Shown: positions 1 to 60,906, counted from the stretch's first letter. The stretch is DNA of 64,000 nt from Amphiscolops sp. MND2022 (GCA_964187785.1 OZ076409.1:18602001-18666000); one strand, 5' to 3'. Notes: generated from the sequence alone by a model not told the origin. Translations and numbers: made by a program.

Positions 1-368
1 TTATGTGGCCCAGAACGATTCCACTGGAGTCTGTGATCCCAAGTGATTGAATGGGACATTAGAGGAGCAACATTTTCTGCGAGAAAAGTTGACGATTTCA
101 AAGAAAAAGTTGGAATTTGAAAAAAAGAGTCTGCGGACAGTTGAAGAGAAAGTTCTACAATTGGATTTCACAACTTTACGAAAACTTTTTGAACCCAGAA
201 GAACTTTTTAAAGTAATACGGAAAACTTTGAACTTTCTCATTAATTAGTGCTAGATCCCTTCCCATATAAGAAATTCCCCTTTGAATTTTAAAAAAAAGA
301 GATTTTTTTATAACAAAATGCATTTCAATTCAGGATGATGAAATCAAATAAAAATTAGAGTTTCAGAC

Positions 369-637
369 TGTACTGACCTACATTAATAACCAATAGTATT
401 TAGATGTTTATAGAATGTTCTAGAATGTACATTTATTTGTTATTGAATGATTGTAAATCTCTACTCCTTCAGAGAGAGAAAACTAATAATCAGTATTCAG
501 TTGACTTCCTTTTTGTTCTACTCCTAACACCTCGGAATAGTTGTAATAAAGTAAGCTAGCTAGCCTGTCTCTCAGCCGCTTTTAGTAGTTGCGTATAAGA
601 CCATCAAAAACAATAACCAACCATTAAAAGCAGCACA
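369..637 (+). repeat. 5' LTR (269 bp)
   Basis: TGTACTGACC...GCAGCACA. Matches 18560-18828 except for 2 substitutions. AATAAA at 545-550. Confidence 0.97.
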
Positions 638-640
638 ATT

Positions 641-655
641 TGGTGCGACTTGTAA
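641..655 (+). promoter_or_regulatory. Primer-binding site (tRNA identity not determined)
   Basis: TGGTGCGACTTGT begins 3 nt after the LTR end. TGG is complementary to the tRNA CCA end. Confidence 0.8.
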
Positions 656-879
656 AAGTTTTCTTTTGCCTTTTCTCCTGGATGATTTCTCTTCTCTCAA
701 CAATCATACAAATACCACTCTCCATGTTTGAAATTCTCTGGAATTGCAGTGAAATCTTTCTAGAATTTCTTGAACGTTTGGTCTGTGACTTTCTAAATTT
801 CATTAATAAATACATCATCGTTCGAAACACAATTTCTCCACTACAACAATCAACTTTAATATAACAAATTTTCTTCACT

Positions 880-1210
880 ACCGGTTTATCACGTTTTCTA
901 ACACGTTGACACGGTACTTCTTCCTGTTCTTCTAGCCAAACCGGTTTATCACGTTTTCCAATACGTTGAAACGGTTTCATTTCGGACTGATTTATCCATT
1001 GTGACACAGTTCTGTTTTTCTTCTTTTTCCAGACTGATTTATCCAAAGTGACACAGTTCTGTTCTCCATACTGATTTATCACAGCTAATCCGGAAGCTTG
1101 TTGAAACAGTTCTCTGATGTTTGTCTGGTTTATCAAGGTTTTCTAACACCTTTGACACAGCAACATTTGTCTGGTTTATCAAGGTTTTCTAACACCTTTG
1201 ACACAGCAAC
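880..1210 (+). repeat. Degenerate tandem repeats in the retroelement leader
   Basis: CCGGTTTATCACGTTTTC recurs at 60-bp spacing (881, 941). An exact 45-bp unit is duplicated with 46-bp period (1120-1164, 1166-1210). Shared GGTTTATCA..GACAC motif. Confidence 0.8.
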
Positions 1211-2235
1211 TTTCTTCAATCCTGCTATCTTGAACGTCAGGTGGACTCCTGGTGTAATAGTTGACTGAGTGCATGTCCAACTCCGCTCACCTATAAGCAC
1301 ATACGTCTCAAGATCAACTTCGTGTTGGCAGAAAACCTGGATTTTCCACTTTTACGTTTCGGATCCCCTTTCTACAAAATTTCCTACAAAAAATTTCAGA
1401 AATAGACTCTGAAAACAAAAAAAAGGCAACCAAGACTAACTACCAAAAACAACCACGCACTATTCCCTTTCTTTCCCTATTGTCGACAAACAATACAAAT
1501 AAATTCACAAAACTTCAATAATACAAATAACTTCAAAAATGTTTTCAATAACCAACAAAAATAACAATAACAAATAAACTCAAACTTACCTCAAGTACTT
1601 CCAATAATAATAATTTTAACATAATCCTACAAAACAATTATTTTAACAAAATACAACATACAATTTTCACAACTCTTTTGCTTTAAAACTTAAAATAAGC
1701 ATGTAAATAACACAAACAAAGTAAAGTTAGTTTTCTACTTTCAGGCACCCACAATTCCTATCCCCTCCCGTAAGACTTAGCCAATCAGACAGCCTCACCA
1801 GCGTACTGTGATTCTAAGACTGACTAAAAACCTTAGTTAAGTGTAAACGTTTTTAAGGAGAATCGAGAGGACACCGAACTACGTTCGAATCTTCAAAATT
1901 CTCAGGAAGTAAAAGTAAAAGTAAAAGAAACAAAGATCAAATTTTGATCTTGATCAGTATTGATCAGACTTTGGATAGTGGACGTTGATTGTTCAGAGTT
2001 CCACTCCTTTAGTCTTAAAACACACAACCCACTTAAAATTAAAACAACCTTAGTTTTTTCTGGACGTGTCAGTAACCTTATGTTAGACACCTTAAAGTGA
2101 TCCAGACTTAAAATAACATTTAGTTTCTGTTAGCAATCCTTTGAGGTTGAATACAGATCCTACTGCACCCGCTTATTTCTTCTCTATCCTAAAATATTAA
2201 CTTCTCAAATAACTTCAAATTACAATACAACTTAT

Positions 2236-2562
2236 ATGAACCCAAACCAAGAAATTTATCCTTTCAACTTTTACATTCCACCAATTAGCTCACTTCAAAA
2301 CCCTACACCAAACGATTTTGAAAGATTAATTGAACGATATCAACGATATTTCTTCTTTATCATAAATCAACAAAGAAATTACCCAAGAGCTCGAACTTAG
2401 AAAATCTTTATACAAGACATTTCAACGTTATAACCTTCACATTATAACATGTGGGAAAAGGTTACCACAGTAGTACTCATTACAACATACACGTTTTGTG
2501 TCTTATTTATAGTTTGTGTTCTTCTTGAAAAAATACTTACAGTGATAAGAGATGAACTTTAA
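2236..2562 (+). pseudogene. Putative small ORF0 of the retroelement with C-terminal hydrophobic segment (two in-frame stops)
   Basis: ATG 2236 MNPNQEIYPFNF...RART*KIFIQDISTL*PSHYNMWEKVTTVVLITTYTFCVLFIVCVLLEKILTVIRDEL*. Ends 2 nt before the ORF1 ATG. Confidence 0.4.
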
Positions 2563-2564
2563 AA

Positions 2565-3854
2565 ATGTCCTCAACGACAACCCCTCTACCTTTCCAAACT
2601 CCCGTCATTAAAAATGCAAAAGTTGTAAAATTAGAACTAAACCCATTTCTACAAAACATTTTTTCACAATATACACAACCACTCCCATTTGAAAATGAAC
2701 CACACACAATTGAAACAACCCCTCTTATTAGAGAACATTTGGACACATACCTTTTCTATATTAGATATAAAGTTTTAACAATCACCGAAGAATACCCAAC
2801 TTTTCAAATATCCTTTCCTCAACAAAAACTTAACTCATCTCATATATACAGAAGAACAATAAACCCAATAAACCTTCAAGTTCCTAAAGTTTTTCATGCT
2901 TTTCTAAATAATGTAAAAGACCACAATTTAGCACACGAAATTCCAAAATATAGTCCAAATGCACTCGACGATCTTCAACGATACATAGACAATTTCGACG
3001 TAGAAATTATTGAAACATTGGTTAATCCTGATGACAACCCTCATCATTGGTTACAAGCTGATATATTACGAATTCAAAATTTCATCTACCACTACTTCAA
3101 AGACCTAACATTAAATGACCAAACAATTCCTCAGATCAAAGTAATATCTTTATTTCTCAGAAAATACTTCAGATTTAATTATCAACTATTATGGTCTCAA
3201 CAAGATCAATCTGCTTTTACAGCATTTCCAGATCATTTTACATTAGAAGAATGTTTACCATTCATCATCAGTGAACAAAATGAACACCCTTACTTTCATA
3301 AACCACAATTAATTACAAAACAAACCTTAGATTACATACGTTTCGATCCTCTATTAATTACAGAAAATGATCTATTCCCAGATAATAGACCTTACCACTA
3401 TCAACAAAATTCTCAAGATCAACAAAACTTACATTTTAACACTAACAATTCTACTGAAGATGATAACACCGATCAGGAAAATACAACCCAACAACAAAAT
3501 CAACCTGAAAACTATAACGATAATGAGTTTACTACCCAAGAATCTACAATCTCAACATATAATCCATCACAAACAGGGACATCAACATCAGTACATACTC
3601 ACTCCTTTAGAGTTCCCACTAGAGTTGTAAATCAAAGACAAAATATACATAGTCCTCAATCTCATTTAGATACATCTCCAAACCGTAATATAACTTTTAA
3701 CCTTCCACATACAGACGACATAAACGATGAAACCCATGATACATTACAATATAATACTATGACTACATCTAGTGCTCAGAATACTTCTGCTAATGTTGCA
3801 TCTCCAACAAGAACTACCTCTGATTCTACAAGATACATTACTCGACCTAGATAA
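2565..3854 (+). CDS. N-terminal extension of the gag-pol polyprotein (unknown globular domain plus N/Q/T-rich linker)
   Basis: 429-aa ORF in the same frame as 4215-6515. A single TAA (3852-3854) separates them and the frame is open from 3855 to 4214. Confidence 0.7.
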   Translation: MSSTTTPLPFQTPVIKNAKVVKLELNPFLQNIFSQYTQPLPFENEPHTIETTPLIREHLDTYLFYIRYKVLTITEEYPTFQISFPQQKLNSSHIYRRTINPINLQVPKVFHAFLNNVKDHNLAHEIPKYSPNALDDLQRYIDNFDVEIIETLVNPDDNPHHWLQADILRIQNFIYHYFKDLTLNDQTIPQIKVISLFLRKYFRFNYQLLWSQQDQSAFTAFPDHFTLEECLPFIISEQNEHPYFHKPQLITKQTLDYIRFDPLLITENDLFPDNRPYHYQQNSQDQQNLHFNTNNSTEDDNTDQENTTQQQNQPENYNDNEFTTQESTISTYNPSQTGTSTSVHTHSFRVPTRVVNQRQNIHSPQSHLDTSPNRNITFNLPHTDDINDETHDTLQYNTMTTSSAQNTSANVASPTRTTSDSTRYITRPR

Positions 3855-4214
3855 GATCCTCCATCAATTCCCTCCGCCTTTCGCTCAAACAGATCAACCA
3901 CTTCTAGTAACAATTTTAATGATAATCCTCAAACTTCCAACCGATATTACGATCCATTTAATTATAACTTTTATCCTCCATCAAACACAACTACCAATAC
4001 AAATATAAACCAAAACCACTCTCAAATTAATACAATTTCAACAACACAAAACCCCTTCATACAATTATCAAATACCAATACATCCCAGAATATATATTCT
4101 CAAAATCGAGGAACCTCGTGTACTTCCATTTCTTATTCTAATATTACACAGGATTCTCAAAGAAGACTTCATAATCCTCCACTTACACATATCCCAACTG
4201 ATCCTCTGTATCGA

Positions 4215-6515
4215 ATGCATCCAAATCCAAATCTTAACCCTAATCCTAACCCATTCTCACCAAATACAATCCAACATATACCTCCACCACTCACACAACA
4301 ATTAGCTTCTTCACCCCAATATCTACCAATGCCACAAGATACCTTTATAAACATGTCCGCTTCAATACCAGAACCTATGAAACCTTTTGATGGTTTGGAC
4401 CATTCTTACACCCCCGAAGAATATCTACAACAAGTCGAAGCAAGATTAACCTTCGCCATAGGTGAAGAACCTCAAAATAATCCTATAAAATACAAATCTT
4501 GGCATAATAGACGCATGGCTTACATACAATGTTCATTAATAGGAACAGCTCTCGATTGGTACACTAACCTCCATATATCGTATAAACAACAATGGAATTC
4601 CTTTGTACAACTATTCAAAAAACAATTCTCATCTCAAAAAACTGCTTACTACGCTCAAGTAGAAGCTATGTCACTCATGAAAAAGGATAATGAAACAGTT
4701 CGCCACTTCGCCCTTAGAGTACAACAATTAGGTAAAAAGGGATGGTGTAATGAAAATGCAGCTACCATAAATCTCAAAAATAATGAAATCTTTACAAAAG
4801 GGTTACCAAAGAAGTTAAAAGATTTTGCCCATAAACGACAAGTTAAACATGTATCAACATTACTTGAACCTTCAATACCATTTCATACACTTGTTAGACA
4901 TGTCGATTCTGAAGATATTGCTAATGAAAAAATCAGAACTAACGACTTAGCCCTAGAAATAAACAAAGTATCGCTTGAAGAGAATACTAACAAAAAAGAA
5001 TTGGAATACGAAGATCAGATAATGGTTACTCAAACTGGAGACCCAAATAACAAAAGCAAACCAGCGTATAGAAAATATTGTTCCTATTGTCATAAAAATA
5101 ATCATAGTATTTCAAATTGTTATCAAAAACAACGTGATGACGAATACCAGAAATACAATAACCAAAGATCACGAACTCCTCAACAATCCTTTGTACAATA
5201 TTTTCGCAGTAAACCTAATAATCCTCAGGAAAATCGAAATGAAAATACAAACTCTTATTCCTCAGATAATGATCGTAATAAATATAATCAAAACTACTAT
5301 AATGATAGATACAGAAACAATGATAGATATCGTAGCAATAGTAGAGAATATTCGCAAAACACCTATAGATCAAACTCTCGACAAAGATATTATAATCGAT
5401 CCCGAAGTCCGTATAGATCTCGATTTGATAATTATTATCAAAGAAGAACACCACCTAGATCTCCATATAGATCTCCATACAGAAATAACTCAAATTACAG
5501 ATATAATTCTCGCTCAAGATACAGATCTCGTTCTCAATCACAAGGAAACTCCTTTAAACGATATAATTATCCATATAGATCTCCATCAAGACCTAGAGAT
5601 TTTAGATCAAGATCTAGAACACCCTCAAGAAACAGACAACAAAACAGAATAAATCAAGTAGACGTTAAACCCCCAAAAGAAAATGATAGTACAAAAATTG
5701 AAATCCACACCTGTCAAATGACTGAAATAGATAATACAATCACCCCTTATAGTTGGTTTTATCCACTATATATTCACGCCTCTGAAACAAATGACAACAT
5801 ATTACCTTCAAAATTAGAAATCTTATTCCTTTTAGATACTGGAGCTTCCATATCTGTTTTGAATTTACCAACATTTCATGTAATTTCCAAACAATTAAAC
5901 ATCAATATTCTAACTAACCTCCAAAACAAAAGAGCCAAAACTCTTACAGTTGCAAACCAAACTGAAGTACCAATAATACATTATATTTCGATGACCTGTT
6001 TCACTGAAGTAAATCACAAAACACGATCCTTCAATATCGATTTTGCCGTAGCAAATATCAAATACAACATTCTTGGAACACCCTTTTTCAAAAAGCACAT
6101 CCAAAATATTGATTTTCAACAAAACATTATGACGTACACAGAACAACATCCAAAGCTTTCAACAAAAACTACATTTTCTACATTTACAGAAAAAGATTAT
6201 CCATATATTTCTTACATTTATACTATTAAATGTAAGGAACCAATTCACTTTAAACCAAGGTCAGGAAAAACCATACATTTTCCAATTAAAAACTATTCAA
6301 ATCTACATTTTGAACTCGAAGATAATACGAAGTTCTACCCAACAAACCCATATACACATTTCTTACAAAAATTTAAAAATATCTTTCATTTCTTAGATAT
6401 GATAGTCAATGAAAAAAGCAAAGACTCATGTGCAACCATAATTCAAAACTTTACATCTTACCCAGCTACATTACCACGAGGAATTATTGGATATATAGAA
6501 ATACCTATTACATAA
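4215..6515 (+). CDS. gag: Gag (capsid-like, CCHC knuckle, RS-rich region) plus aspartic protease plus possible degenerate dUTPase-like segment
   Basis: PFDG...LIGTALDWY...WNSFVQLFKKQF...ETVRHFALRV (retrotransposon gag). CSYCHKNNHSISNC knuckle. RSRSP repeats. LLDTGASISV and ILGTPF protease motifs. Confidence 0.9.
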   Translation: MHPNPNLNPNPNPFSPNTIQHIPPPLTQQLASSPQYLPMPQDTFINMSASIPEPMKPFDGLDHSYTPEEYLQQVEARLTFAIGEEPQNNPIKYKSWHNRRMAYIQCSLIGTALDWYTNLHISYKQQWNSFVQLFKKQFSSQKTAYYAQVEAMSLMKKDNETVRHFALRVQQLGKKGWCNENAATINLKNNEIFTKGLPKKLKDFAHKRQVKHVSTLLEPSIPFHTLVRHVDSEDIANEKIRTNDLALEINKVSLEENTNKKELEYEDQIMVTQTGDPNNKSKPAYRKYCSYCHKNNHSISNCYQKQRDDEYQKYNNQRSRTPQQSFVQYFRSKPNNPQENRNENTNSYSSDNDRNKYNQNYYNDRYRNNDRYRSNSREYSQNTYRSNSRQRYYNRSRSPYRSRFDNYYQRRTPPRSPYRSPYRNNSNYRYNSRSRYRSRSQSQGNSFKRYNYPYRSPSRPRDFRSRSRTPSRNRQQNRINQVDVKPPKENDSTKIEIHTCQMTEIDNTITPYSWFYPLYIHASETNDNILPSKLEILFLLDTGASISVLNLPTFHVISKQLNINILTNLQNKRAKTLTVANQTEVPIIHYISMTCFTEVNHKTRSFNIDFAVANIKYNILGTPFFKKHIQNIDFQQNIMTYTEQHPKLSTKTTFSTFTEKDYPYISYIYTIKCKEPIHFKPRSGKTIHFPIKNYSNLHFELEDNTKFYPTNPYTHFLQKFKNIFHFLDMIVNEKSKDSCATIIQNFTSYPATLPRGIIGYIEIPIT

Positions 6516-6683
6516 ACAACTCCTCCTCACTACAGAGTTAACGATGTAAATTCACTCATTCACTCTGTAATACATGCATATCACCCTGATACCACAACCC
6601 CGATTAAACAAATTCCATATACAGATATGAACTTATGTACTAGGGTAATACCACAATCCCTATTAGAAATAAACAAGAATATA

Positions 6684-8375
6684 ACGACAAAACACTTCAA
6701 CTTCCTATACCTTCTGTTACTGGAAACCTTCGACCTTCAGATAAAATTCGAAAAGATTTCCCTCCATTACCCTATTCTACAGAAAACCAACAATTCATAA
6801 AGAAGTTCAATTTCGAATACTCAGATTTAACCGATACAGAATATGTAAATCTCTGCAATATTCTAATTAACAACCAAAATTGTTACGCCAAACATAAAAA
6901 CGACGTAGGAAAGATTTCTACTCCTTTTCGAATTAGAATAAAAGATAATTGTAAACTTCACACACAAAGACCTTCCAAAGTACCTATCCACTATAGAGAT
7001 AGACTAAATAAACTTTTACTAGAACTCGAAAAATACAACATCATAAAACAAATTGGTTCGACAACAGATGAAAAACATACTATTGGAACAACATTTTTAA
7101 ACCCTTTAATTATTATCCCAAAAGGAGACGCAATAAAAGTTGTTTTAGACGCAAGACATCTAAACTCAAACACTAACCAAGAACTTGAATCTTGGCCTAT
7201 TGAACCTTTAGCTCCTCAATTAGCTAGAGCAAATAAAAAATACAAATCAACTATTGATCTAATGTATGCATATGCTCATACACCATTAGATGAAGAAACA
7301 ATTAAACTTACAGGATTTTCATCCGGTGACAAATTATACGCCTTTATCCGTGGATTTTACGGATTAAAAGGACTTCCAAACATCTTCACAAAACAAATGT
7401 CAACTTTCTTTAGATCACTTATAGACAAACGTTCTGCGTTAGTTTATATAGATGATATTCTATTACCCGCAAATGAAAAACAAGAAATGTTTGAACTTAT
7501 AAAAGAATTACATACAATAGCATCTCGAGAAAATCTCAAACTTGCACATGAAAAATCGTTCTACATGTTACTCAAAGTAAAATTCCTTGGACATGGAATT
7601 GGTAACAACACAATTAAACCAATTCCATCCAAAATTGAAGCTATTAAAAGAATCCCATCACCAAAAGAAAAGAAAGATGTTATGCAATTTCTTGGCAGTG
7701 TTAACTTTTATTCAAAATTCATTGAAAAACTTCATATATACCTTAAACCATTGTATACATTACTACATGATGATGTTAAATTTCAATGGACACCTGAATT
7801 AGAAAAACTATTTCATAATGTTAAAAACGCAATGACAGCAGACACTGAATTAACAATACCCAACACCACGCATCCATTTTTTATAACAGTAGATGCTTCG
7901 TTAGTAGGTTTAGGCGCAGTCTTATTCCAAATGAACGAAGAAAATAAGATGAAAGTAATCTCTTATAACTCCAGAATTCTCAATACACAAGAACAAAAAC
8001 TTTCAACTTTAGACAGAGAACTTCTTGCAATAGTTTACGCATTACAAATATATGGATTTTTTTATCATTGGATCTCCTCATCCTATATATCTCTTCACAG
8101 ATCACAAGCCTTTACTACATTGTTTCGCAAAGAAAGGAAATCTTAGTCCTAGATTCTATAGAGCACAAATGCAATTAACCAAATTCTCCAAATTAAAAAT
8201 CATTCATACCCCTGGAAAAAATTTAACTGTAGCAGATATGCTTTCAAGAACCTCTACAAAAGAACAGCTACAAGTACACCAATTACGACACAAACAATTA
8301 CCACCTCAAATAGATTTCTCTTTCATGAAAGATATTCAACTCAAACCAGTACATTATTTAGTAATGAAGAAATAA
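6684..8375 (+). pseudogene. pol: Reverse transcriptase and RNase H (frameshifted)
   Basis: LNPLIIIPK..VVLDARHLN..IDLMYAY..FYGLKGLP..VYIDDILL..FLGH. RNase H motifs TVDASLVGLGAVL, DRELLAI, FTDHKPL, ADMLSR. Frameshifts near 6680, 8060 and 8365. Confidence 0.93.
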
Positions 8376-10587
8376 AATATAATCAAAAGAATGATTGTCA
8401 TCCTATCCTTGCTGACTACGGAGACGACCAATTCTACATCCGTATGAATAACAAAGGAGAAGATATACATATAAAGCCTTTAGATTCCTTCTCTTTTCAA
8501 TCTATTGTTCCATTTTAATCAAAATATAAGCAGCATACAAAAAAACAAGCAAAATCTCTTTTACAACAATCGACAATTCTTAATGATACTGACATTCTTA
8601 GTGATGAAGATGAAATAACACCATCAAATACTATCCAACAACAAAACTCGAACATAGTAAAAGAATACACCCTTGCTATACAATATCCTACCAAATCTGA
8701 CTATTGTAGACAACAAGTTCCATTTTTTGATCCATCCTTTTTCAAATACAAAAAATATTTTAATTACTTCTTCCTACCAGAAGATACACAAATAACCATT
8801 GAAACAATAAAAGCTCAACAAAATCAAGATACTGTTTTACAAAAGGTTTACCAATGGATACTTAATAATGAAAGACCCTTTCAAATAGACCCAACAATTG
8901 CAGCTAACTCTTTCTTATTAGTATATTACAAACTCTTCAACCAATTATATATTAATCATGATACAAAAATTATTCACATAGATTATCCTAATCTTCACGA
9001 TTCAAACCCGAATCAAAGAGACAAAATATGTCTACCATTTAAACTTTTCCACACAGCTTTTAACAAACTTCATGCTCATGGACATTCAGGAATAAAAATA
9101 TCCATCAAAGCTTTCAACCAATTTTACTTCATACCGTACCTGAATAAATGGATGTCAATATTCATCCATGATTGCATTGAATGCCAACAAAATAAACATA
9201 TTAACCAAAAATTACAAACTGCATCTATACAAACCTTCTCAGAAAATGCTTCATATTTTAATTACCGAATATCAATGGATACAAAAGGACCTATAAACCC
9301 ACCATCAAATCAAAATTCATACATTCACGTTATAGTAGACGCTTTTAGTCACTTTGTAGTAACAGTACCCATAAAACAAAATAATGCTCAAAACGCTGTT
9401 AACTCATTACTACATCATTGGATAACAAAATTTGGACCTCCTGTATACCTAGTTACCGACCGTGGAACAGAATATATTAATTCAGAATTTGCAAATCTTT
9501 GTACCACAATGGGAATTAGACATTCACCAAGAACTCCTTATGCACCATGGACAAATGGTTTAGTTGAAAATCAAAACAGAAATCTTGGAACTCATCTCAG
9601 ACTTTTCTTACATAACACTCCAGAAAATTGGTCAACTCAAGTCCATATGTATGCTTATGCACATAATTCCGACCACTTTCTGAATTAAACTTATCTCCAT
9701 ATGAAATAGTATTCCATACTATACCCAGAATTCCAATCAACTTTGAACTCAATCTCCAAAGAGATACATATAGAAATTGTACTTCTCAATATTGTCAAGA
9801 ATTACCACTTCATACACACTATGACAAATCAAATCTAAACCCTTTCTTTCATAAAATTTTATCTAAACCAATTCCACAATGGATCTTAGCTACTGAAACT
9901 GCTATGATACAGATATACCATACGGTATATGAAAACACAAAAAGAAAGATTAATTCCTATGCTTATTTTAACAAAACATATCACAATACAAGACCCTTAG
10001 ATATTGGTACATTTGTACTAAAAAGAAATTTTCTCCATGTTCATTTTTCCGATAAATTAAAACGTCTCAGAATTGGCCCATTCAAAATTATTAACAAACT
10101 CTCCGATATAACATATGAAATTGTTAATCAAGATGGTTATACATCGCACATACATAGAAATCTTTTAATTCCTTATTATCCAAAAGAACCAGTTATTTTC
10201 CCTTTCATACAACAATATAACCCTCATTTATTTAATGAATGTCATTCAAATACAAACGATCAAATAATTAACTCTGATGAAGACAAATTTACAGACGAAG
10301 AACAATTTCCTTCCACAACATTTAATAAAGAAACGGATATACCATCCACGATTGACTTACAACCAGAACGATTTAACCAAAATTCTTCATTTCCATATAA
10401 ACAAAAAGAACAAATTCCTCAAAATACCTCCCTGAATAACCAATCAGATATTCATGATTATGATAATTTTATTAATCCCCGAAGACACTCCTATAATAGA
10501 TACAATTTCCGCCCACAAACAAGAAAAGACTACCGACTCTTCCTTGGTGAAAAGGATATATTTTCAATTTCTCAAAAATCCTGCTGA
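8376..10587 (+). pseudogene. pol: Integrase (HHCC, DDE, GPY/F) with linker, disrupted
   Basis: LHAHGHSG...CIECQ zinc finger. SMDTKGP, TDRGTEY and NGLVE catalytic motifs. IGPFKII GPY/F module. In-frame TAA at 8516-8518 and frameshift near 9668. Confidence 0.92.
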
Positions 10588-10756
10588 AATACGGAATACA
10601 GAAAGAAATACACACAAAGAAAGTTTGAAAGAAAGAAAAAGTTTGAAGCTTAATGCGAAAATAAATGAAATTTATTTGACGAATGAGAATAAAAGAAAGA
10701 AATCCTAATTGATATAAAACTATAACTATTTTACAAGCTGAAACTAACTATCATAA

Positions 10757-12225
10757 CACAACGATTTCAAAATTGATAGACATATTCACTCACCATCATC
10801 AACTACAACTAACTCTTCTTCTAGTTCAACACATTCACTCCAAAGATTACCTGAATATACAGCATATTTAAAGTCAGATACAGACATACTGGATTCCTCA
10901 TCCTCAAATCCCAGTCCATCCGCTCCATATACTCCTGATAGAGTACCAACAACACCCACTAATACACCTATATCCCAAACTCAACCACAAATATTAACAA
11001 CTCAATCACAACCGATTTCACGAAATCTAACATTTTTAGAAACAAATTCACCACTTTCTGACTCTAATGATGAAACATCTACAATACCAAATACACAAGA
11101 TACTTCAGATATTTTGAATATACCTCCTCTTCCACCGATTACTACCACTCGTTCTATTCATATCCCTGATCCTAGCTCAGTCCTACAATACATAAATTCT
11201 TGTCCACACAAAGTACCAACTGCAACGAAAACAAAAAGAAAAACTCCTTTACCTACATTACCACAAAATCTTGATTTACCATCATCAAGTAATATCCCAA
11301 TAACATTTTTACCAGAACCTTCATTAAAATCACCAACGAAAAAATCACAAAAATACCCAACTCCTTCACCATCGGAACTAAGTTCCTTCACATTTTCTCA
11401 AATATATCCCAAGCTTGAATTACAACGTGTACATTCAACAACTACCTCTTATTAACAGATTTATATCATAAAGATAAAGACTCTGACTCAACTGCTAGTA
11501 CTAGAGTACCAAGACATAATTATAACCTTCGATCTCAACAACAAAGAGATTCTCAAGAATTACAATCCTTAACTAGTTCAAGTACAAACTCAAGACTACT
11601 TCGACAACACGCCCAACCCAGATTGGACACTTCTTCTCTTTCCTCATCTCAGCCCACTATACCATCTTCTCTATCACTACCATTTCAAATCACATCAGGA
11701 TTTGAAACAGTCTCTCTTCTTTCTGAAGAGCCAGCAACTATATCAGATAGCGCAGCTAATTTTTCACGAGTTTACTCACCTAGTTCAATAGCATCAAACT
11801 CCTCTATACAATTACCTGAATATTTTTTAGAAGAATTCTCAAGACCTCCATCGCCAAATCCTCACGAATATCCTATTCGTGTTAACTCAAAACTTGTTCG
11901 CACGCTTAACGAAGATCCTCGATACACGGTATTACCTGCAAGATTTATAAACAATAGTTCACTCTCAACTCAAAGAAAACAAAGAGAACTACGAAGATTA
12001 CAAGAACAACAACTCACATTAAAATTTGAAGTAGAAGTCACATTCAACTCGTTAGGACCTCATCCATTCTCTCTTTCAACAAGAGTAGCACATAAAACAA
12101 CCCCATCACCATTCATTGTTACCTCCATTTCCTACCTTTGTGACGCAGATATACCTGAGATTAGAACAGGACATATAAACTTTTTAAATCCCTACTCAGG
12201 ACTCAATTATAGATCAATATTTTAA
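10757..12225 (+). pseudogene. Accessory ORF between pol and env: S/T/P-rich with small globular C-terminus (frameshift near 11450)
   Basis: Frame open 10757-11455 (contains PSAPY), then continues in another frame (RHNYNLRS...) into ORF 11623-12225. No clear start codon. Confidence 0.6.
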
Positions 12226-12227
12226 CC

Positions 12228-14804
12228 ATGAACCAAATCACCTTTACCTTTCATTTAATATATATAATACAAGTTGTTAAATACACGTATATAATAAATA
12301 TAGTTCACTCTTTAGTTCACCCTTCAACTGTTCCCAAAGTTGACACCACCAATTCCGAAAATCATATTTCAGACCAAGATCCTAACATTTTAAACTTAAT
12401 GGTATCTCATTATGATTGTGCAAAACAAAATAACTTACGACAATTCAGTTTATTAAATGTAGAACCAGGTAAACAAGCACCCTCAGATATACAACACACA
12501 AAAACCCAAGCAACAGTTTACGTTAGAGCAAAAGCCAAAAGAATAAAAGCCTTTAAATGTGAAGCATATATAAAGACTGAGAAAGTCTGGTGTTCACAAA
12601 CATTCACATCTAGTAGACGATATGATCGTTTACAATGGGGACAACACACATTAGAACTTCCAAAAATATTGGACCCTATTGAATGCAAAAATATGATCAG
12701 ATATTTAAACGCGACTGATAGCGAAGAATTAAACAACTACAATATACGAAGCTCTTTCTCATTGTTCGACGATAGTAATTATCAAAACACAATTGAACGA
12801 ATTCAGACACCATTTAGAGTAAAAAAACTAAATACATGGCATATTGGAACCTTCGTATTTGACGAAAATTATCCTGATTGGATAGTTAATGTTACACAAA
12901 ATACATACTCTAGATGTCGATCAGACCGCGAACATTTAATTACCCGACAAAGTTGGAAACTTAGAATTGTTAACACCGCAATAGATTATGACGATAAAAA
13001 CAATCAATTAATACATGACGGACACATATTACCATGTTATCATTCAGACGGATTTTGTAAACCAACGACCAAAACTCCATATACATTAACATGGTTTGAT
13101 GAAAAATTTTGCCTCATATTTCAACTTCAAGAATTCATTGGTAGAATGACACGAATCAAAGATAGATATTGGATAGAAACCGATACCTTCATTGAAACTT
13201 CAAACATCACACAAAAACTTCAAACCGAAGGAATACAAGGAACAAAATACCCTAATATAAAAACACCACAATCAAAAGTAAGCAATCCAAGCCTTTCTCG
13301 ATTTGAAATATACCCAATTGCACAAACCTTCTGTGGAAAACCTGAACCATCATTTTCAACACAATATGATGACATCTTTGTTACATACTTAGATGGTTTT
13401 GATATGAACACAGGATTACCAAAACCACACTCAATAATTGACCAAACAATTAGTGGAAATATAAAATATGATGATTCAAACAAAAGGTATATATTCCCTG
13501 CATTGAATATATCAAACAATTTCGCCACTTTAGACTATGATGCCCACATTAATACAAAGATTGATTTCACAATAAATCATGTATTTAAATCCATGACAGT
13601 ACAAGAAATAAACACTCTTCATACAATATGTGAACTAGAAAGAACTCAACTGTTAACAATACTAGCAATGTCAGTTAAAAATCCCCAATTAGCCGGTTTT
13701 CTTTTAACTGGAAATCGTAGTAACTTTCTCTACGTTGAAGGATCTACAGCATGGCTGTATGATTGCCCTCATTTTATATCACCACTATACAAGGCAGATA
13801 AATGCTTTGATAGAATTCCTATACACTACAGAGAAACGATAATGTATGTTGACCCAATAACAAGACAAACTTTTGACTACGCAACACCAATTGAATGTGG
13901 AAATAACCCACAAAATATAATAGAATTAGATCCAGATTCCAACGACGGAGATTTTTATGTGTTAACACCAGAACCACTCAAACGAGAAGCACCACAAATG
14001 TTTAAACCTACCCAAATTAAAACAACAATCACTCCTAATACATTTACCGCCCAAGATGCCGGTATATACTCAAATGCAGAATTAGATCAATTCTGGAATA
14101 GAGTATTATTTGCTAAACATTCAGACACAACTCTTCAATAACTTGGAAAATCATTAAGCTATGATTTCATTTCAATGCATAATGAAAAACACTCATACTC
14201 AGGACATAATCCCTATAATCATTTAAGGATTGGAGTACATGACCACTTGTTAAATCTTTTACCACTTTTTAACCCTGACTGGTTCAGTCAAGCATTCATT
14301 AATTTCTTTGGATACCCATGTTATGTTTTAACCCAATGTGGAATTTATTTTTCAACATTCCTTTTCATTAGAGAAGTTTTAACATTTATACTCAAATTCT
14401 ACAGAACAATTAGCATAAAATATAATCTCCAAAGCAACATTTCCATTTTGAGTTCAATAGCCCATGGATTTTTTAATATAGTTACATCGGAAATGGTAAC
14501 CGATTTAAATAATACAGGAAAACGAAAACGGATATACACTAAACACAAAATTACAACAAGTGAAAATGATAATATCCTATTGCCGGAAAAAGAATTAAAC
14601 AATAAACGAAGACACTCTGATACTGACTCCCCTTATTTACCTCCTAAATATTCCAGTAAGAACTCAACATTTCAATCACCGCAAAAGACACACCCAACTA
14701 ATGTAAACGATATTAATTCTCAGGACTATGACCCAAAAATGTCAAATGTAATAGCTGTACCGGAAAGTCCTGCTAAAGTCTTTATAAAATTCAATCCCTC
14801 CTAG
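12228..14804 (+). CDS. env: Envelope glycoprotein, class III fusogen-like (herpes gB / chuvirus G type); one internal TAA at 14139-14141
   Basis: Hydrophobic N-terminus. YDC..FSLLNVE..FKC..WC..EC cysteine pattern. ICELERTQLLTILAMSVKNPQLAGFLLTGNRSNFLYVEGSTAWLYDC resembles the gB central helix region. CFDRIPIHY..YVDPITRQ..IEC. Several NxS/T sites. C-terminal TM segment in the in-frame ORF 14175-14804. Confidence 0.85.
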
Positions 14805-15220
14805 CTGAAAAGCAATAACTTAAAAAACAAATTAACCTCAAGAAAAGTTCACAAAATTATCAACCAAATTCTTCTCAGTTTCAACTTTCATTCACACCCA
14901 AATTCTCACTCGGACCGGTCTCTCCTTTTCAACTGAACTCAACTCTCAACCAGAAGACTTCAACTGGATTTTCAGTCCATCTAAACGACCGAAATCACAG
15001 AAGTTTCTATTCGTGGAATAGATGCCACTGTGATTGTTGATGTTTTCAACCCATCATTGACCCAGTATTCCCATATTGTAAGTACAATTTAAACTTTAAT
15101 TTTAACAAACAACTTAATGGATAGAAAAGACATAACAAAATTTTTCCTTAGTTTTAGAAATAATGTAATCAAATGTTATAATCATTATTTTAGCTCTACA
15201 AAAACACGCAAGTTCAAATA

Positions 15221-16512
15221 ATGGAATCCTTGTCCGAAATTGATGTAGTTAACTCTAATCCCTCTGAATTGCTTGCAACCCCTTTGAATATAACTATTCA
15301 ACAAGATGTTACCGAAGATAATAACTCTTCCTCCAACTCTCAAGACCCTATAGAAAATATCCCTATTGAACAAGTAGATCATGTTAACACAAGATCTCAA
15401 AAAGAAAGTACCCAGATATAACCGCAGATAAACCTTTTATGGAATCTGGCGCTTGCCCTCCTTTCATAAAACCAATTAAACAAGATGAAGATAGAGATTG
15501 TGAATTAGTTCCTATTCTCTCGTCGAAACGATTCACATTTCAATCTCAGTTAACTTCGTTATACATGATTCCAACAAAATACAAATTCATCATCAGAGAA
15601 TTTAAAAATGATTATCATACATCAATTGCTTCAAAACTGATTACCCCATATGATTGGTGGTTAAACAATAAAGTGAAAATTTTCTCACTTCAATACAACT
15701 TCCTCAGACCATCTCCATATGATCTTCGAACAGAAGAAAATGATGCAAATTTTTTGCCATATCAAATCAAAAAGGCCCACCATATGACTTATCAAAAGTT
15801 CCTTCAATATAAAGAGCCCGATAATTATATATTCTTCAACTCCAAATATACATCGCCATTCAGTTGCAACTCAGAATATTTAATAGATCATACCACAACA
15901 AAAGGAAAACTTAGAAATTATGACCCGCTGAAACAAAGTTTTCTCTTCCTTCCAAATGATAACCCAAAAAGACCAATCATTGTTCCACAAGAATACCTCA
16001 TTCTAAACGACGATTCGTTACTACAAGAAGATATACCTCAACATATATCTGATCCTCTTCCTCCACTTCAACAAATAGCCTCTCAACCATTGGGAGACTG
16101 TGAAAAGTCTTATTTCCACGCAATGATCAAAAAGGGATATTCAAATAATGAATTAATTTTCATTATTTCCCACCTACTTTCACTTATTACAAATGGAAAT
16201 CACAAAGAAAATAAAAAGGCAAAACAAGAATCGCCTATGAAAACCAAAAATGATATTCCTCAACCACAAAGTTTTCGCCCAACAGGTGAATTACAGAAAT
16301 ATACAGAAATTCTGAATATCATAAAACCGTATCATCATCCAAACCGAGATATTCTTATAACAATCGCTGAAATCGTAAATACCCTTGAACAAGCTCGAAG
16401 CATAATACAAAATATCGTATTTGATACGACAAGAATTAGCCAATCAGCTTTGTGCATTCGCACATCCTTAGACGAATTCAACTACACTATTGAAAAAATG
16501 CATCGATCTTAA
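15221..16512 (+). CDS. Accessory ORF 3' of env, unknown function (~430 aa if the frameshift near 15415 is repaired; intact part 15439-16512)
   Basis: 66-aa and 357-aa ORFs are adjacent in different frames, have element-like composition and lie inside the LTRs. No recognisable motif. Confidence 0.65.
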
Positions 16513-16848
16513 CTGGTAATTATGGGATAATAGCTTTAAAGTTGTTAACACTTATCACTTAATCTCTTAACAACCTGTCAAAATTAATTGAATCTACACG
16601 CATATGCCTGCTATGCATGATTCTAATACATGCTTGGTGTTAAAATACACTTTTAAAATGAAATAACATAAAAATTTCAATCACGACATAAAAATTTTCA
16701 ACGAAATTCTTCAATTGCTCCTCCTTTTAATGGACCGATTTCAACAAATAAGTACTTATATGAAAGATATTTAAATACCCTTCAAAAGACTTTCAAAATA
16801 CAACAACTTAATTCTTATCTTAAAATTAAAAAGTTATAACATCACAAA

Positions 16849-17505
16849 ATGCAATAAAAAAATGTCAACTACGAAATTCTATTTTCAAAGGAACTTTATT
16901 GTAAACAAACTAATCTATTTTAGGTGAATATCGTCACAACTGCTTCTTCAGCATTCCTTCCTACTCTCAGGTCACCCATTCAAGAAGAATTCCGAAGTAT
17001 CTTCTACAGCTTTCAACGAAATTTTCTCATTCTTCAATATGACACCTATCCACTCTGGCGACATTGACTGCCCGATAGCTCCTTTTCTTTCAATCTCTTC
17101 AGCTCGATTGCGATCCTTGATCCTGAAAAAGCATTTAACGACATTAAATGCGCAGCTTCGAACAGAAAAAAAGGCAGACCCAGATCTTACAAGATGATAT
17201 TGCCTAATATGTTCCAAATAACAAGAATAAATTTCGACCAATATCTCCATATTCATAAACATCCTGACACTTATTCAACTCGAAAGGATGCCACTACCCA
17301 AACAGAACCTACTACCATCAAACCCAAGCGTTTAATACGAACTCTATCCAATAGAATGCATTCCGAAATGGAAAAACAACGTCTAAATTCATATTGGCCC
17401 TCAGATGACAATGATGACACTGACGAAGACCTTCAAAAAGATCCCCCAGAAGCACTTATAGATGATAATTACCCACACAAAACATATACTTACGTTTCCT
17501 TCTAA
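16849..17505 (+). pseudogene. Second degenerate accessory ORF 3' of env
   Basis: ATG 16849 is in frame with ORF 17194-17505, with three in-frame stops. Contains RKDATTQTE and an acidic tail. Confidence 0.45.
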
Positions 17506-18051
17506 TATCAACAGACGCCACCAACAGCACCCGTCTACTCCCATCTTCGAATTCCACATCTTCAACGAGCAACAGATCAGCACCCATCTTCAACTTCACC
17601 GCCGCCCAACAGTTGCCCACCTTCATTCATCTGCTGACCCTTCTTCTTCCATCTTCCAATCGTCCATCGTCACCCACATGCTCAGCCAAAGATGATCGAT
17701 AAGTAATAATAAAGAAAACTCAAAGAAAAACATTGTGCATGATAACATTTCGAAAAAGTTTCGAACTCATCTAATATTTCATAGAATTCAAACTCTCATC
17801 TAAATTATTCATTATGTAGTTATTATTTCAAATTTCATCCCCACCCACATTTATTTGCCCAAAAATTTTTATTCACACCTGTACCGATATTTATTTGCTT
17901 TATTTTTAAAGAATAGTTAGTAATGTGTATTATTTTTCGGTGCTATCCTACCCAACAAAAAATTCACAAATATTGTCAACAAATCTTTTCAAATTTCAAC
18001 AAAACCAGCTCCAAATCAGATCAAGCACATTGTTCAGATCAAATTCGAATA

Positions 18052-18461
18052 ATGACAGACCCAAGTTCTCAAAGTTTTTAACATTTGTTACATAACAAAC
18101 CCGCCAAAATTAATTACAACCTGAAATCTTTTCAAACGTATTTCACGTTCGATAAAAATTTTTTTCTCAACAATATTACTTCTTTGACTCTTTGACCTCT
18201 AACTCGTATGATGTTTGCTCACGTTTGTTCAATGCGAAGTTCATTCAAAACTTCAACAGAAGCATAAAATTGAGCATCTACCAGTTCAAAAAACAAGCCG
18301 ACGAAAGCATAGTGAAAAAGAACACTTTGACGCTTTTGAACTGTAGTCGCACCTACGAGGTGTCAATCAAAATTTTGACAATTCGAGGTACACCAATGAG
18401 TCGAATTTACACCACTCTTAACGAGACTTATGCCAATCATCCATCAAATGAAAAATGTTAA
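18052..18461 (+). pseudogene. Possible third degenerate accessory ORF before the PPT
   Basis: ATG 18052, one stop and a frameshift in a T-run near 18160 lead into ORF 18192-18461. Confidence 0.3.
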
Positions 18462-18544
18462 CTAGCTGAAACGCTAAGAACATTTAAACAAAAAATTTTT
18501 CTTCATTTCAATTAATGATGCTACTTTAAAATTTTATTTTATTT

Positions 18545-18559
18545 AAAAACCGGGATGGA
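18545..18559 (+). promoter_or_regulatory. Polypurine tract
   Basis: AAAAACCGGGATGGA immediately before the TG of the 3' LTR. Confidence 0.75.
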
Positions 18560-18828
18560 TGTACTGACCTACATTAATAACCAATAGTATTTATATGTTT
18601 ATAGAATGTTCTAGAATGTACATTTATTTGTTATTGAATGATTGTAAATCTCTACTCCTTCAGAGAGAGAAAACTAATAATCAGTATTCAGTTGACTTCC
18701 TTTTTGTTCTACTCCTAACACCTCGGAATAGTTGTAATAAAGTAAGCTAGCTAGCCTGTCTCTCAGCTGCTTTTAGTAGTTGCGTATAAGACCATCAAAA
18801 ACAATAACCAACCATTAAAAGCAGCACA
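18560..18828 (+). repeat. 3' LTR (269 bp)
   Basis: Copy of 369-637. AATAAA at 18736-18741. Followed by AGAC TSD. Confidence 0.97.
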
Positions 18829-18859
18829 AGACTCTGATTAACTAAATAGTAAAAAAAGT

Positions 18860-19705
18860 TCACTTTTGTTTTGTTAGCAGATCTGCCGGCATTCTATCTG
18901 TAGGTAAAAATTCCAGTAAAATTTCGCCTTTTTCCGTTTTTTCCTGAAGGAAGCAAGTTTTTATGGCAAAATGTTTTGTCTTATTATGATGGATTGAGTG
19001 TTTGCTGAGAGCTATGCATGCTTGATTGTCAACAAACACGCTCACAGGTTTCACCACAACAACTCCAAGCTCACTCAATACACCACAGACATACGACAAC
19101 TCTTGTACAGCGACAGTGCAAGCATTGACTTCAGCTTCGGCTGTTGACAGAGCAACACTAGCTTGCAATTTATTGGTCCAACACACACAACCACTCACAC
19201 TGTTCAATTTCACACACACGCCACTTGTACTCTTTCTCGATGTCAACTCACCGGCCCAATCTGCGTCAGAGAAAGCACAAACAGACACGCCACCTTCACA
19301 CATTCTAAACACGAGTTCATGTTGCTTGGTTCCTTTCAAATACCTCAAAATTCGTTTTCCGGCCATCCAATGTTCTTTTGATGGATGCTCTAGGAAACTA
19401 CTTAAGACGTGAGAGGCATGAGCAATGTCAGGACGACTGCTAAGTGCTAAGTAGTTCAAACTACCAACTAATCCTCTATAGTCTCGTCGTTCCATTATGC
19501 TTTGTTCGTCATAATCTTGTTCTTTGTTACTTTCTCGTTCGAACTTGGTATTTTCTGGTAACGGATTTTGTACTGGTTTACACTCTTCCATGTTGTAGCG
19601 TCTCAAAAGATCGTCAATATACTTCTCCTGACTCACTGCGATTTCGCTCTCTCTAACGTCTATCTTCATCCCAAGGAACCAATGTAGTGAACTACAGTCA
19701 CTCAC
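18860..19705 (-). CDS. pol: Copia RT C-terminus and RNase H (3'-truncated)
   Basis: YRGLVGSLNYL..RPDI; SDADWAG; STAEAE; DNQACI; ADLLTK. Confidence 0.92.
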   Translation of the reverse strand: MSDCSSLHWFLGMKIDVRESEIAVSQEKYIDDLLRRYNMEECKPVQNPLPENTKFERESNKEQDYDEQSIMERRDYRGLVGSLNYLALSSRPDIAHASHVLSSFLEHPSKEHWMAGKRILRYLKGTKQHELVFRMCEGGVSVCAFSDADWAGELTSRKSTSGVCVKLNSVSGCVCWTNKLQASVALSTAEAEVNACTVAVQELSYVCGVLSELGVVVVKPVSVFVDNQACIALSKHSIHHNKTKHFAIKTCFLQEKTEKGEILLEFLPTDRMPADLLTKQK

Positions 19706-20760
19706 TTCAAACTGTTCTTTTTTTTCTTCTCAAACCATCCAACAAAAGCATCCTGTCGTCCCCAATAAAGCATATCATCCACCCACACACACACAACACA
19801 CACCTCATCACCAGTACCTCTCACAAACAAGCATTTGTCGTTTATACATGCTCGGAATCCGATTCTTTCTAGGAACATCTTTAGTGTTAAATACCAGTTG
19901 CGCCCAGACTGTTTAAGTCCGTATAAACTCTTTCGCAACTTACAGTACAATTGGTTACCTTCGTTATTTTTGACTTCAAAGCCTTCCGGTTGTTCCATGT
20001 AGATGTTCTCTTCTATGTCTGCATTCAAATATGCTGTTTTGATGTCCATCTGTCTTGGTTTTACTTGATACTGCGCTGCTAGCTTCAACAGAATCCGTAT
20101 TGTAGACATTCTCACAGTTGGTGAATAGGTTTCGAAGAAATCGCGACCCTCAACTTGTGCAAAACCTTTCGCAACAAATCTGGCTTTGCACTTCTTGAAA
20201 CTTCCGTCTTCGTTGTGTTTCATCGCAAAATGCCATTTTCCTCTCAATGGCTTAGTTCCTTTCGGTAGTTCCTCCAATGTCCAAACTTGGTTACTACACA
20301 AAGAATCGAATTCAGTTTTCATTGCTTCCTTCCACTGAGGATCACTCAAGGCTTCTTGAACGGAACATGGTAGCTTAATCTGACTTGGTTCCTTCTTTGC
20401 ATTGAATGACACTTCATCGCCCGCAACATCTGTGCCATGAAGTTGATTGGATGGGATGTTGTTCACACTTGGTTGACCTTCCTTGGTTCCAAAGTAAAAC
20501 TCATCCTCATTAAACCTCACACTTCTTGTTTTGATCTTCTTGGTTGCGCCGTTTTCCTCTAATCCAACTATGTACGTTTTGCTGTTCTCTGCAAAACCTA
20601 GAAAGACTCCCACTTTTGCTCTCTCGTCGAAATTTCCTCTGAATTGCTTCTCCATAAAACTGTAAACTTTGCAGCCAAACACTTTTATAAAGCTTAAATT
20701 TGGCCTTTCACCGTATATCCTCGCATATGGAGTTTGCTTGGTTGCTGAGTGTAGGAGCAA
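19702..20760 (-). CDS. pol: Copia integrase C-terminal SH3-like region and reverse transcriptase
   Basis: KVFGCKVY..GVFLGF; EALSDPQWKEAMKTE, KARFVAKGF, MDIKTAYLNA, LYGLKQSGRNW, VWVDDML. Frameshifted relative to both neighbours. Confidence 0.93.
   Translation of the reverse strand: MLLHSATKQTPYARIYGERPNLSFIKVFGCKVYSFMEKQFRGNFDERAKVGVFLGFAENSKTYIVGLEENGATKKIKTRSVRFNEDEFYFGTKEGQPSVNNIPSNQLHGTDVAGDEVSFNAKKEPSQIKLPCSVQEALSDPQWKEAMKTEFDSLCSNQVWTLEELPKGTKPLRGKWHFAMKHNEDGSFKKCKARFVAKGFAQVEGRDFFETYSPTVRMSTIRILLKLAAQYQVKPRQMDIKTAYLNADIEENIYMEQPEGFEVKNNEGNQLYCKLRKSLYGLKQSGRNWYLTLKMFLERIGFRACINDKCLFVRGTGDEVCVVCVWVDDMLYWGRQDAFVGWFEKKKKNSLK

Positions 20761-45330: not shown

Positions 45331-60906
<15,576 letters not shown>

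Follow-up and report, generated by a model that had tools for sequence, protein, structure and literature searches.

The window analysed here is a 64,000-nt stretch of the genome of Amphiscolops sp. MND2022 (GCA_964187785.1 OZ076409.1:18602001-18666000), and its positions 369-18828, read base by base, are occupied by an 18,460 bp retroelement of the Ty3/Gypsy type bounded by long terminal repeats (LTRs). The gene order is LTR, a 1.9 kb leader, a giant open reading frame (ORF1) that includes gag and pol, ORF2, env, ORF4, ORF5 and LTR (Table 1). The element carries three accessory genes (ORF2, ORF4 and ORF5) and a conserved N-terminal Gag domain, in place of the about five accessory ORFs counted in an earlier note that was made from the sequence alone. 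The broader claim of that note, a complex lineage of Ty3/Gypsy elements that has env and accessory genes of its own, is borne out, as ORF2 and ORF4 were found in four families of the same genome and the ratio of nonsynonymous to synonymous substitution rates (dN/dS) is 0.09-0.18 for ORF2, ORF4 and ORF5. ORF2 contains no AUG and may be translated from a CUG on the same message as env.

Boundaries, copies and families

A direct-repeat search of the window returned a single long repeat pair (369-638 and 18560-18829, 99 % identity), and the LTRs of 269 nt with TG..CA ends that it represents differ from one another by 2 mismatches. They are flanked by a duplication of the target-site bases AGAC, and the 5' LTR is followed by a primer-binding site (PBS)-like sequence, TGGTGCGACTTG, the core of which (TGGTGCGAC) is common to this element and to the second family described below. 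These boundaries were correctly drawn in the earlier note, as was the placement of every sizeable ORF of the element on the + strand, with the exception of the polypurine tract (PPT). The sequence at the position expected for it, AAAAACCGGGATGGA, is only partly purine, and the PPT of the window element is a poor one with no clean polypurine run. ARAGORN found no tRNA in the window. The element interior is compositionally distinct from the rest of the window (GC 0.31-0.34) and its + strand is rich in A and C, with a GC skew of -0.18 to -0.44 and values of ~0 in the flanks.

The 1.07-Gb assembly was searched for further copies. With the LTR as the query, all 40 of the matches scored (from 1358 first-look candidates) were 100 % identical over 269-270 nt, and the 7,960-bp 3' half, from the end of pol to the 3' LTR, found 12 other full-length matches at 97-98 % identity among the 19 of 4112 candidates that were scored. 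Ten sister copies, taken as overlapping half-element stretches, were then compared with the window copy. Perfect 4-bp target-site duplications are present in all eight sister copies with both ends readable and are all mutually different, and the LTR pairs are 98.1-100 % identical in 8/11 copies with both LTRs delimitable. Hence, these are independent and fairly recent integrations, and the window element is a dead copy of a young, abundant and recently active high-copy Ty3/Gypsy family (F1). It has accumulated ~12 stops or frameshifts, with every gene struck. Each copy breaks at different places, and on this basis recurrent frames were separated from private lesions. Two caveats apply to this picture: each of the 11 copies examined has lost at least one gene, so that recent rather than current activity is indicated, and some of the frameshifts could be assembly errors.

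A search with env yielded 66 relatives and revealed diverged families of the same genome, so that four are now distinguished: F1, represented by the window; F2 (loci L021-L026), which is 18,134 bp long with 421-nt LTRs and is collinear with F1, the gene order being the same; F3 (locus L027), compared over the 3' half only; and F4 (locus L028), compared from the end of pol to ORF5. The Env proteins of F3, F2 and F4 share 93, 60 and 53 % amino acid identity, respectively, with that of F1. The size of the window element, ~2 times that of typical Gypsy elements, and the Ty1/copia element that abuts its 3' end could be taken to mean that the 18.5 kb are a composite, an ordinary Gypsy element with nested insertions in one copy. 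The 12 other loci that match the entire 3' half, the ten collinear sister copies and the identical gene order of F2 leave this explanation with practically no probability.

Structural variants were seen among the sister copies. In its 5' half, one (L015) includes ~0.9 kb of additional leader sequence with a 268-codon open frame, probably a nested insertion, and another (L019) has an internal duplication in the 5' half, with gag-to-protease ORF pieces (434 and 403 aa) found twice and the 5' LTR absent from its expected place.

Table 1. Features of the F1 element in the window (positions are those of the window)
Feature	Position	Strand	Remarks
Target-site duplication AGAC, left copy	365..368	.	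same 4 bases 3' of the 3' LTR
5' LTR	369..637	+	269 nt, TG..CA; AATAAA at 545, TATAA at 594
5' leader	638..2564	+	1.93 kb, ATG-poor
PBS-like site TGGTGCGACTTG	641..652	+	starts 3 nt past the 5' LTR; TGG-type
46-bp tandem duplication in leader	1120..1211	+	98 % identical; repeat search
ORF1	2565..10587	+	one ORF of ~2,670 codons: N-terminal domain, linker, Gag, protease (PR), reverse transcriptase (RT), RNase H, integrase (IN)
ORF1 N-terminal domain (earlier 'ORF0')	2565..3395	+	~277 aa
Low-complexity linker	3396..4154	+	N/Q/S/T/P-rich; unalignable between families
Gag core	4524..5120	+	Retrotrans_gag PF03732 4524-4733 (E 1.3e-6); CCHC zinc knuckle 5079-5120
Aspartic protease motif LLDTGA	5829..5846	+	
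RT and RNase H	7226..8050	+	RVT_1 7226-7597, YIDD 7445-7459; RT_RNaseH_2 7787-8050
Integrase	9041..10167	+	Integrase_H2C2 and rve 9041-9547, C-terminal SH3-like domain
ORF2, accessory gene 1	10757..12225	+	S/T/P-rich start, conserved C-terminal half, no Met codon
Candidate CUG start of ORF2	10889..10891	+	AUA-CUG-GAU, purine at -3, G at +4
env	12228..14804	+	858 codons from ATG; 863 stop to stop
ORF4, accessory gene 2	15221..16512	+	~430 aa, predicted long C-terminal helix
ORF5, accessory gene 3	17039..17505	+	~155 aa from first Met; frame opens at 16928
Position expected for PPT, AAAAACCGGGATGGA	18545..18559	+	abuts 3' LTR; purine only in part
3' LTR	18560..18828	+	269 nt, TG..CA
Target-site duplication AGAC, right copy	18829..18832	.	

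Coding content of the element

In the window copy, ORF1 is broken by stops at ~3852, 6513 and 8516 and by frameshifts near 6680, 8054, 8364 and 9670 (in total, 3 stops and about 5 frameshifting indels). What had been described as a separate ORF0 (2565-3854) is in frame with gag, and its stop at 3852 is confined to the window copy. In other copies the frame continues for 662 to >2,553 codons, and in one sister copy, where the initiator ATG is ACG, it is uninterrupted across the 2,553 codons compared. As the frame runs from ORF0 into gag in the sister copies, ORF1 encodes a single polyprotein; the giant gag-pol reported earlier is not intact in the window copy.

The N-terminal domain of ORF1 is 45 % identical between F1 and F2 over 256 aa (E 2e-67, BLASTP). 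It matched no family in Pfam or PHROGs, and a search of the Atlas gave nothing beyond a weak BTB lead (0.86). Identity between F1 and F2 is 52 % for the gag-PR portion and 64 % for pol; that of pol between F1 and F3 is 83 %, over a 166-aa C-terminal piece only. A Pfam scan found matches in 6 of the 17 ORF pieces of the element and, together with motifs, gave the domain order PR-RT-RNase H-IN with an RVT_1-type RT. This order, the TG..CA LTR pair with a short target-site duplication, and a Gag that combines a capsid-like domain with a CCHC knuckle are the hallmarks of Ty3/Gypsy elements. The closest named relatives of pol are generic Gypsy polyproteins that share no greater than 37 % identity with it. 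By its Pfam architecture pol is Gypsy-type, and membership of the Retroviridae is not claimed.

The env gene has its intact length in six of the ten sister copies and is interrupted by a stop at 14139 in the window copy. The predicted protein has a signal-like hydrophobic N-terminus, 16 Cys residues, a single transmembrane (TM)-like segment (residues 709-727, ~14337-14393) and a tail of ~135 aa. The earlier note had called it a glycoprotein B (gB)-type env. Residues 437-646 (window 13521-14126) match PF24664, the Monjiviricetes fusion glycoprotein (E 2e-23); this was the only match of the uninterrupted 863-aa protein in Pfam at E<=1, and the herpes gB profile was not found. Searches of PDB sequences returned no matches with the single sequence and two insignificant ones (E 0.28 and 0.6) with a profile. 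A gB-type fold is nonetheless plausible, because Chuviridae-like glycoproteins are counted as structurally gB-like (PMC13524379). An AlphaFold2 model of env from an alignment of 12 sequences (pLDDT, predicted local distance difference test, 31) is unusable.

The S/T/P-rich ORF noted earlier, ORF2, is conserved in all four families, though in the window copy it is frameshifted near 11451. It is full-length (489 codons) in 7/10 sister copies, and the F1 protein shares 87 % identity with that of F3, 41 % with that of F2 (E 4e-62) and 35 % with that of F4 (E 1e-34). ORF4 follows the same course, at 91, 42 (E 3e-92) and 34 % (E 1e-59) identity, respectively; in the window copy it is frameshifted near 15399, and four of the ten sister copies have it at full length with a start (431-439 codons). 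ORF5 is frameshifted near 17193 in the window copy, is open as a 195-codon frame in all ten sister copies and is 75 % identical between F1 and F3. Hence, the additional ORFs are not one-off insertions, recurring as they do in sister copies and in diverged families. The two or three further ORFs that had been placed after env come down to ORF4 and ORF5. A third, 'ORF6' (18156-18461, + strand), was rejected as a gene: it contains no Met codon, has no counterpart of >=90 aa in F3 and has a dN/dS of 2.3 in its own frame.

Selection was assessed by the method of Nei and Gojobori (NG86) on F1 versus F3. The dN/dS values were 0.13-0.14 for ORF2, 0.10 for env, 0.09 for ORF4, 0.16-0.18 for ORF5 and 0.21 for the C-terminus of pol, whereas reading these alignments in either of the other frames gave 0.7-2.1; non-coding spacers differ by 11-15 % between the two families. 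Within the family, pairwise dN/dS of most segments was 0.6-1 whichever frame was read, and that of ORF5 was erratic; these values are uninformative because the differences between copies are mostly neutral decay after insertion. ORF2, ORF4 and ORF5 are real genes under purifying selection comparable with that on env.

This conclusion must be set against several considerations. As F1 and F3 are close relatives, four families are worth only about three independent tests. ORF5 of F1 shares only a short motif, I.F[DE]QY...H, with that of F2 (E 0.005-0.03 in single comparisons), and no similarity to F4 was found. NG86 was applied to strongly A/C-skewed sequence, an effect that the off-frame control mitigates and does not remove. 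Searches of Pfam, PHROGs (0/4), PDB sequences and the Atlas with ORF2, ORF4, ORF5 and the N-terminal domain gave no match to a known family; for ORF2 and for ORF5 neither Pfam nor PHROGs had one, and for ORF4 the Atlas held nothing usable. ORF4 does have 277 relatives, none with Pfam domains, and a profile search with it matched 504 clusters (50 % identity), mostly fragments. Its AlphaFold model, from 50 aligned sequences, has a pLDDT of 47.7 and is confident only for a small sheet and the long C-terminal helix. A fold assignment for ORF4 was also tried and abandoned, as a wide VIA-align search matched only generic long helices (residues 373-430, Z ~6).

The lack of homology to any known family, the occasional capture of ORFs by LTR retrotransposons (PMC6431247) and the lack of visible selection within the family would all fit a different explanation, namely that the additional ORFs are passengers, or were captured, and play no part in the life cycle of the element or, for ORF2, that it is a fortuitously open 5' untranslated region of env. 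We consider this improbable. The ORFs hold the same place and order, and remain similar as proteins, in four families whose Env identity is as low as 53 %, the low dN/dS is confined to the annotated frame, and ORF2 is free of stops for 418-490 codons where the composition predicts a stop every ~15 codons. A neutral signal within the family is what would be expected of copies that decay after insertion.

Proposed translation of ORF2 and env

Not one Met codon is present in the 489 codons of ORF2 in F1, the 490 in F3, the 418 in F2 or the 477 in F4. The depletion extends to all three frames of the region from the opening of ORF2 to the env ATG, which contains 2 ATG versus 13.2 expected in F1, 1 versus 13.3 in F3, 2 versus 10.3 in F2 and 1 versus 9.4 in F4, and those that are left open just 1-16 codons. 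Against a null obtained by codon shuffling, which preserves codon content, the depletion has p = 0.0065 in F1, 0.0005 in F3 and 0.0035 in F4. In env, ORF4, ORF5 and pol the ATG count is at least that expected. The leader is also poor in ATG (10 versus 25.8 expected in F1 and 4 versus 11.6 in F2). The env ATG lies 2 nt after the ORF2 stop in F1, 1 nt after it in F4 and 30 nt after it in F3, and in F2 it is found 55 nt before the stop.

CTG is the rarest Leu codon of ORF2 (1/45 in F1, 1/44 in F3, 1/42 in F2 and 2/62 in F4), yet a CTG is present at a homologous I-L-D site, in an optimal context for initiation with a purine at -3 and G at +4, in all four families, and conservation between the families begins there. 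This CTG is retained in 11/11 copies of F1. The arrangement described for rice tungro bacilliform virus (RTBV), a non-AUG upstream ORF with hardly any internal AUG before the AUG of the next gene, is thus seen in each of the four families.

The AUG-free ORF2, the surrounding ATG desert and the conserved CTG together lead us to infer a dicistronic ORF2-env message with a CUG start. ORF2 and env would be translated from one subgenomic message; translation of ORF2 would begin at the conserved CUG in its optimal context, and most scanning ribosomes would bypass this codon, traverse 1.2-1.5 kb that are nearly free of AUG and initiate at the env AUG. A complex env-bearing Gypsy endogenous retrovirus (ERV) of this kind, with an AUG-free, CUG-started ORF2 and env on one message, is the reading that we consider probable, though by no means secure. 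The weak depletion in F2 (codon-shuffle p = 0.096) counts against it, as does a crude scan for splice signals in both leaders, which found no donor scoring >=8/9 and weak acceptor candidates.

Another way to supply the start would be splicing. A short 5' exon with an AUG, such as that of ORF1, would be fused to ORF2 with the frame preserved, as in the multi-exon CERV protein of Cer1, and Env would come either from ribosomes that terminate on ORF2 and reinitiate at the neighbouring AUG or from a spliced RNA of its own. Splicing would account for an ORF2 without AUG and for the short distance, 1-30 nt, from the ORF2 stop to the env AUG in F1, F3 and F4; the mRNA for CERV itself is spliced from five exons and has its frame in common with the polyprotein (PMC10309623), and the weak acceptor candidates are found ahead of the CUG. 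However, it explains neither the purge of ATG from all three frames of the ORF2 region nor a rare CTG in optimal context at the onset of protein conservation. The env AUG of F2 is upstream of the ORF2 stop, the leaders scanned contain no strong donor, and reinitiation after ~450 codons normally requires special factors (PMC5902531). We therefore regard a spliced start as unlikely.

Since ORF2 opens only 105-255 nt past pol and lacks a start codon of its own, it might also be a C-terminal extension of Pol (integrase) produced by frameshifting, readthrough or splicing. Readthrough or frameshifting from pol into ORF2 was rejected, as stops close each of the three frames within the gap. The offset of the ORF2 frame from that of pol also varies, being +1 in F1 and F3 and +2 in F2 and F4, and the AUG desert and the conserved CTG would again be left unexplained. 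An extension of Pol is thus very improbable.

The function of ORF2 is a more speculative matter. A LYPxL block is invariant at a homologous position in all four families and a PSAP is found ~9 residues after the CTG in F1, F3 and F2; neither was found in Gag of F1 or F2. These motifs resemble the ALIX-binding and TSG101-binding late domains, respectively, of retroviral Gag. In retroviruses the late-domain role is normally built into Gag. ORF2 may supply a late-domain function that recruits the endosomal sorting complex required for transport (ESCRT) for budding, a lead that comes from motifs of this kind. PSAP is missing in F4, and motifs this short turn up by chance, YPxL in 13-16 % and P[ST]AP in 4-5 % of composition-matched shuffles per protein, all of which weakens the case. 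The fuller proposal, that an animal Gypsy lineage independently became complex, with three accessory genes, a CUG-started ORF2 combined with leaky scanning, and ORF2 as an ESCRT adaptor acting in trans, is tentative and on balance doubtful. ORF4, with its long C-terminal helix, and ORF5, which is small and fast-evolving, might be regulatory or host-directed factors, each translated from an AUG of its own on additional subgenomic RNAs.

Genomic neighbourhood and relationship to known elements

A Ty1/copia-type element with a broken frame (18860-22632, - strand) directly adjoins the F1 copy at its 3' end; the domains of this neighbour are gag_copia, a zinc knuckle, rve, RVT_2 and a retroviral SH3-like domain. 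Elsewhere in the window, ~600 bp (55374-55996) lack stops in five or more frames, counting both strands, and coincide with a spike in GC/AT skew (+0.29/+0.25) in the 54-56 kb bin; this stretch is probably a simple or tandem repeat. Upstream of two F2 copies (L021 1-8900 and L024 1-8970) are other retroelement-like ORFs of up to 1,130 codons, which suggests that repeats are densely nested in this genome. Identical sequence is found on both flanks of the F2 copy in L024/L026. An unrelated family of near-identical 87-nt repeats was seen at >=12 loci (for example, C2:70791016-70791102).

Env-bearing Gypsy elements and extra ORFs in such elements have already been published and the kind is known. 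The suggestion in the earlier note of an undescribed system was too strong in view of published Gypsy elements with a gB-like env (PMC13524379) and with extra ORFs (PMC6431247). Ty3/gypsy elements carrying an F-type or gB-type env are known across the metazoa, the non-insect ones with an HSV/gB-type ENV as 'ancient errantiviruses' (Chary & Hayashi, eLife 2026, PMC13524379). With these the present element shares a Ty3/gypsy pol, the GAG-POL-ENV order, many near-identical copies and a large env glycoprotein with a signal-like start, many Cys and a C-terminal TM segment. It differs from them in its length of ~18.5 kb, in the 1.6 kb and one gene between pol and env, in the two genes after env and in the extra conserved N-terminal Gag domain. 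No accessory genes are reported in the text of that survey. As it was limited to a POL-ENV gap of <=1000 nt and a region of <=10 kb, layouts like this one were probably missed. No PBS ending in ...GTCGCACCA was found in the element table of PMC13524379, of which the supplement was sampled and given one text search.

Large size and extra ORFs have precedents. Additional ORFs downstream of pol, on either side of env, Gypsy elements of >30 kb (Burro) and foamy-like fish ERVs of up to 17 kb have been reviewed (PMC6431247). Bdelloid Vesta/Juno, planarian Burro and plant Ogre elements resemble the F1 element in having extra ORFs, a length of >10 kb and thousands of copies (PMC5408684, PMC6431247). 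However, the ORF3s of the Vesta/Juno type are single and often enzymatic (GDSL, DEDDy), whereas here there are three orphan genes (PMC5408684); Burro combines host-like domains and env in one polyprotein, whereas here the accessory genes are separate; and Ogre owes its size mostly to its LTRs, which here are short (269-421 nt) (PMC6431247). Cer1 of C. elegans is similar in that CERV is an accessory non-structural protein of a Gypsy-family element, needed for a retrovirus-like step, the export of genomic RNA (PMC10309623). It differs in that CERV is encoded by five exons that overlap the polyprotein frame, unlike the separate ORFs found here downstream of pol.

The closest parallel for ORF2 and env is with RTBV and the badnaviruses, in which ORF I starts at an AUU and ~900 nt are free of AUG, such that ribosomes leak to the next ORF (PMC5902531). 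Both have a non-AUG upstream ORF and a run of ~1 kb poor in AUG, with the next AUG starting the downstream gene, and in both short internal upstream ORFs are tolerated (PMC5902531). Unlike the present element, which is an LTR retroelement, apparently of an animal, with env as the downstream gene and a mechanism proposed from sequence, RTBV is a plant pararetrovirus (Caulimoviridae) whose downstream gene encodes a polyprotein. Env is likewise the second cistron of the vpu-env and rev-env dicistronic mRNAs of the lentiviruses SIV and HIV (PMC5902531), and a CUG-initiated accessory product is known in the glyco-Gag of murine leukaemia virus (PMC3042739). A limited literature search turned up no errantivirus paper on non-AUG initiation, leaky scanning or bicistronic translation. 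Accessory genes flank env as they do in complex retroviruses, but pol is of the Ty3/Gypsy type (Metaviridae-like) and the accessory proteins are unrelated in sequence. What is new is the set of three orphan genes and an N-terminal Gag domain in four families of ~18 kb, and the AUG-free, CUG-marked ORF2 ahead of env.

Surveys of env-bearing Gypsy elements confined to 10 kb and to a pol-env gap of <=1 kb (PMC13524379) probably miss lineages like this one. The findings, from four families that share one genome and each have many near-identical copies, indicate that retrovirus-like complexity, in the form of accessory genes and probably of non-canonical translation, arose also outside the Retroviridae. 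An AUG-free ORF2 with a conserved CUG makes a sharp prediction on how env is translated, and the accessory proteins represent new families, the targets of which could show how elements of this type bud, are regulated or evade host silencing.

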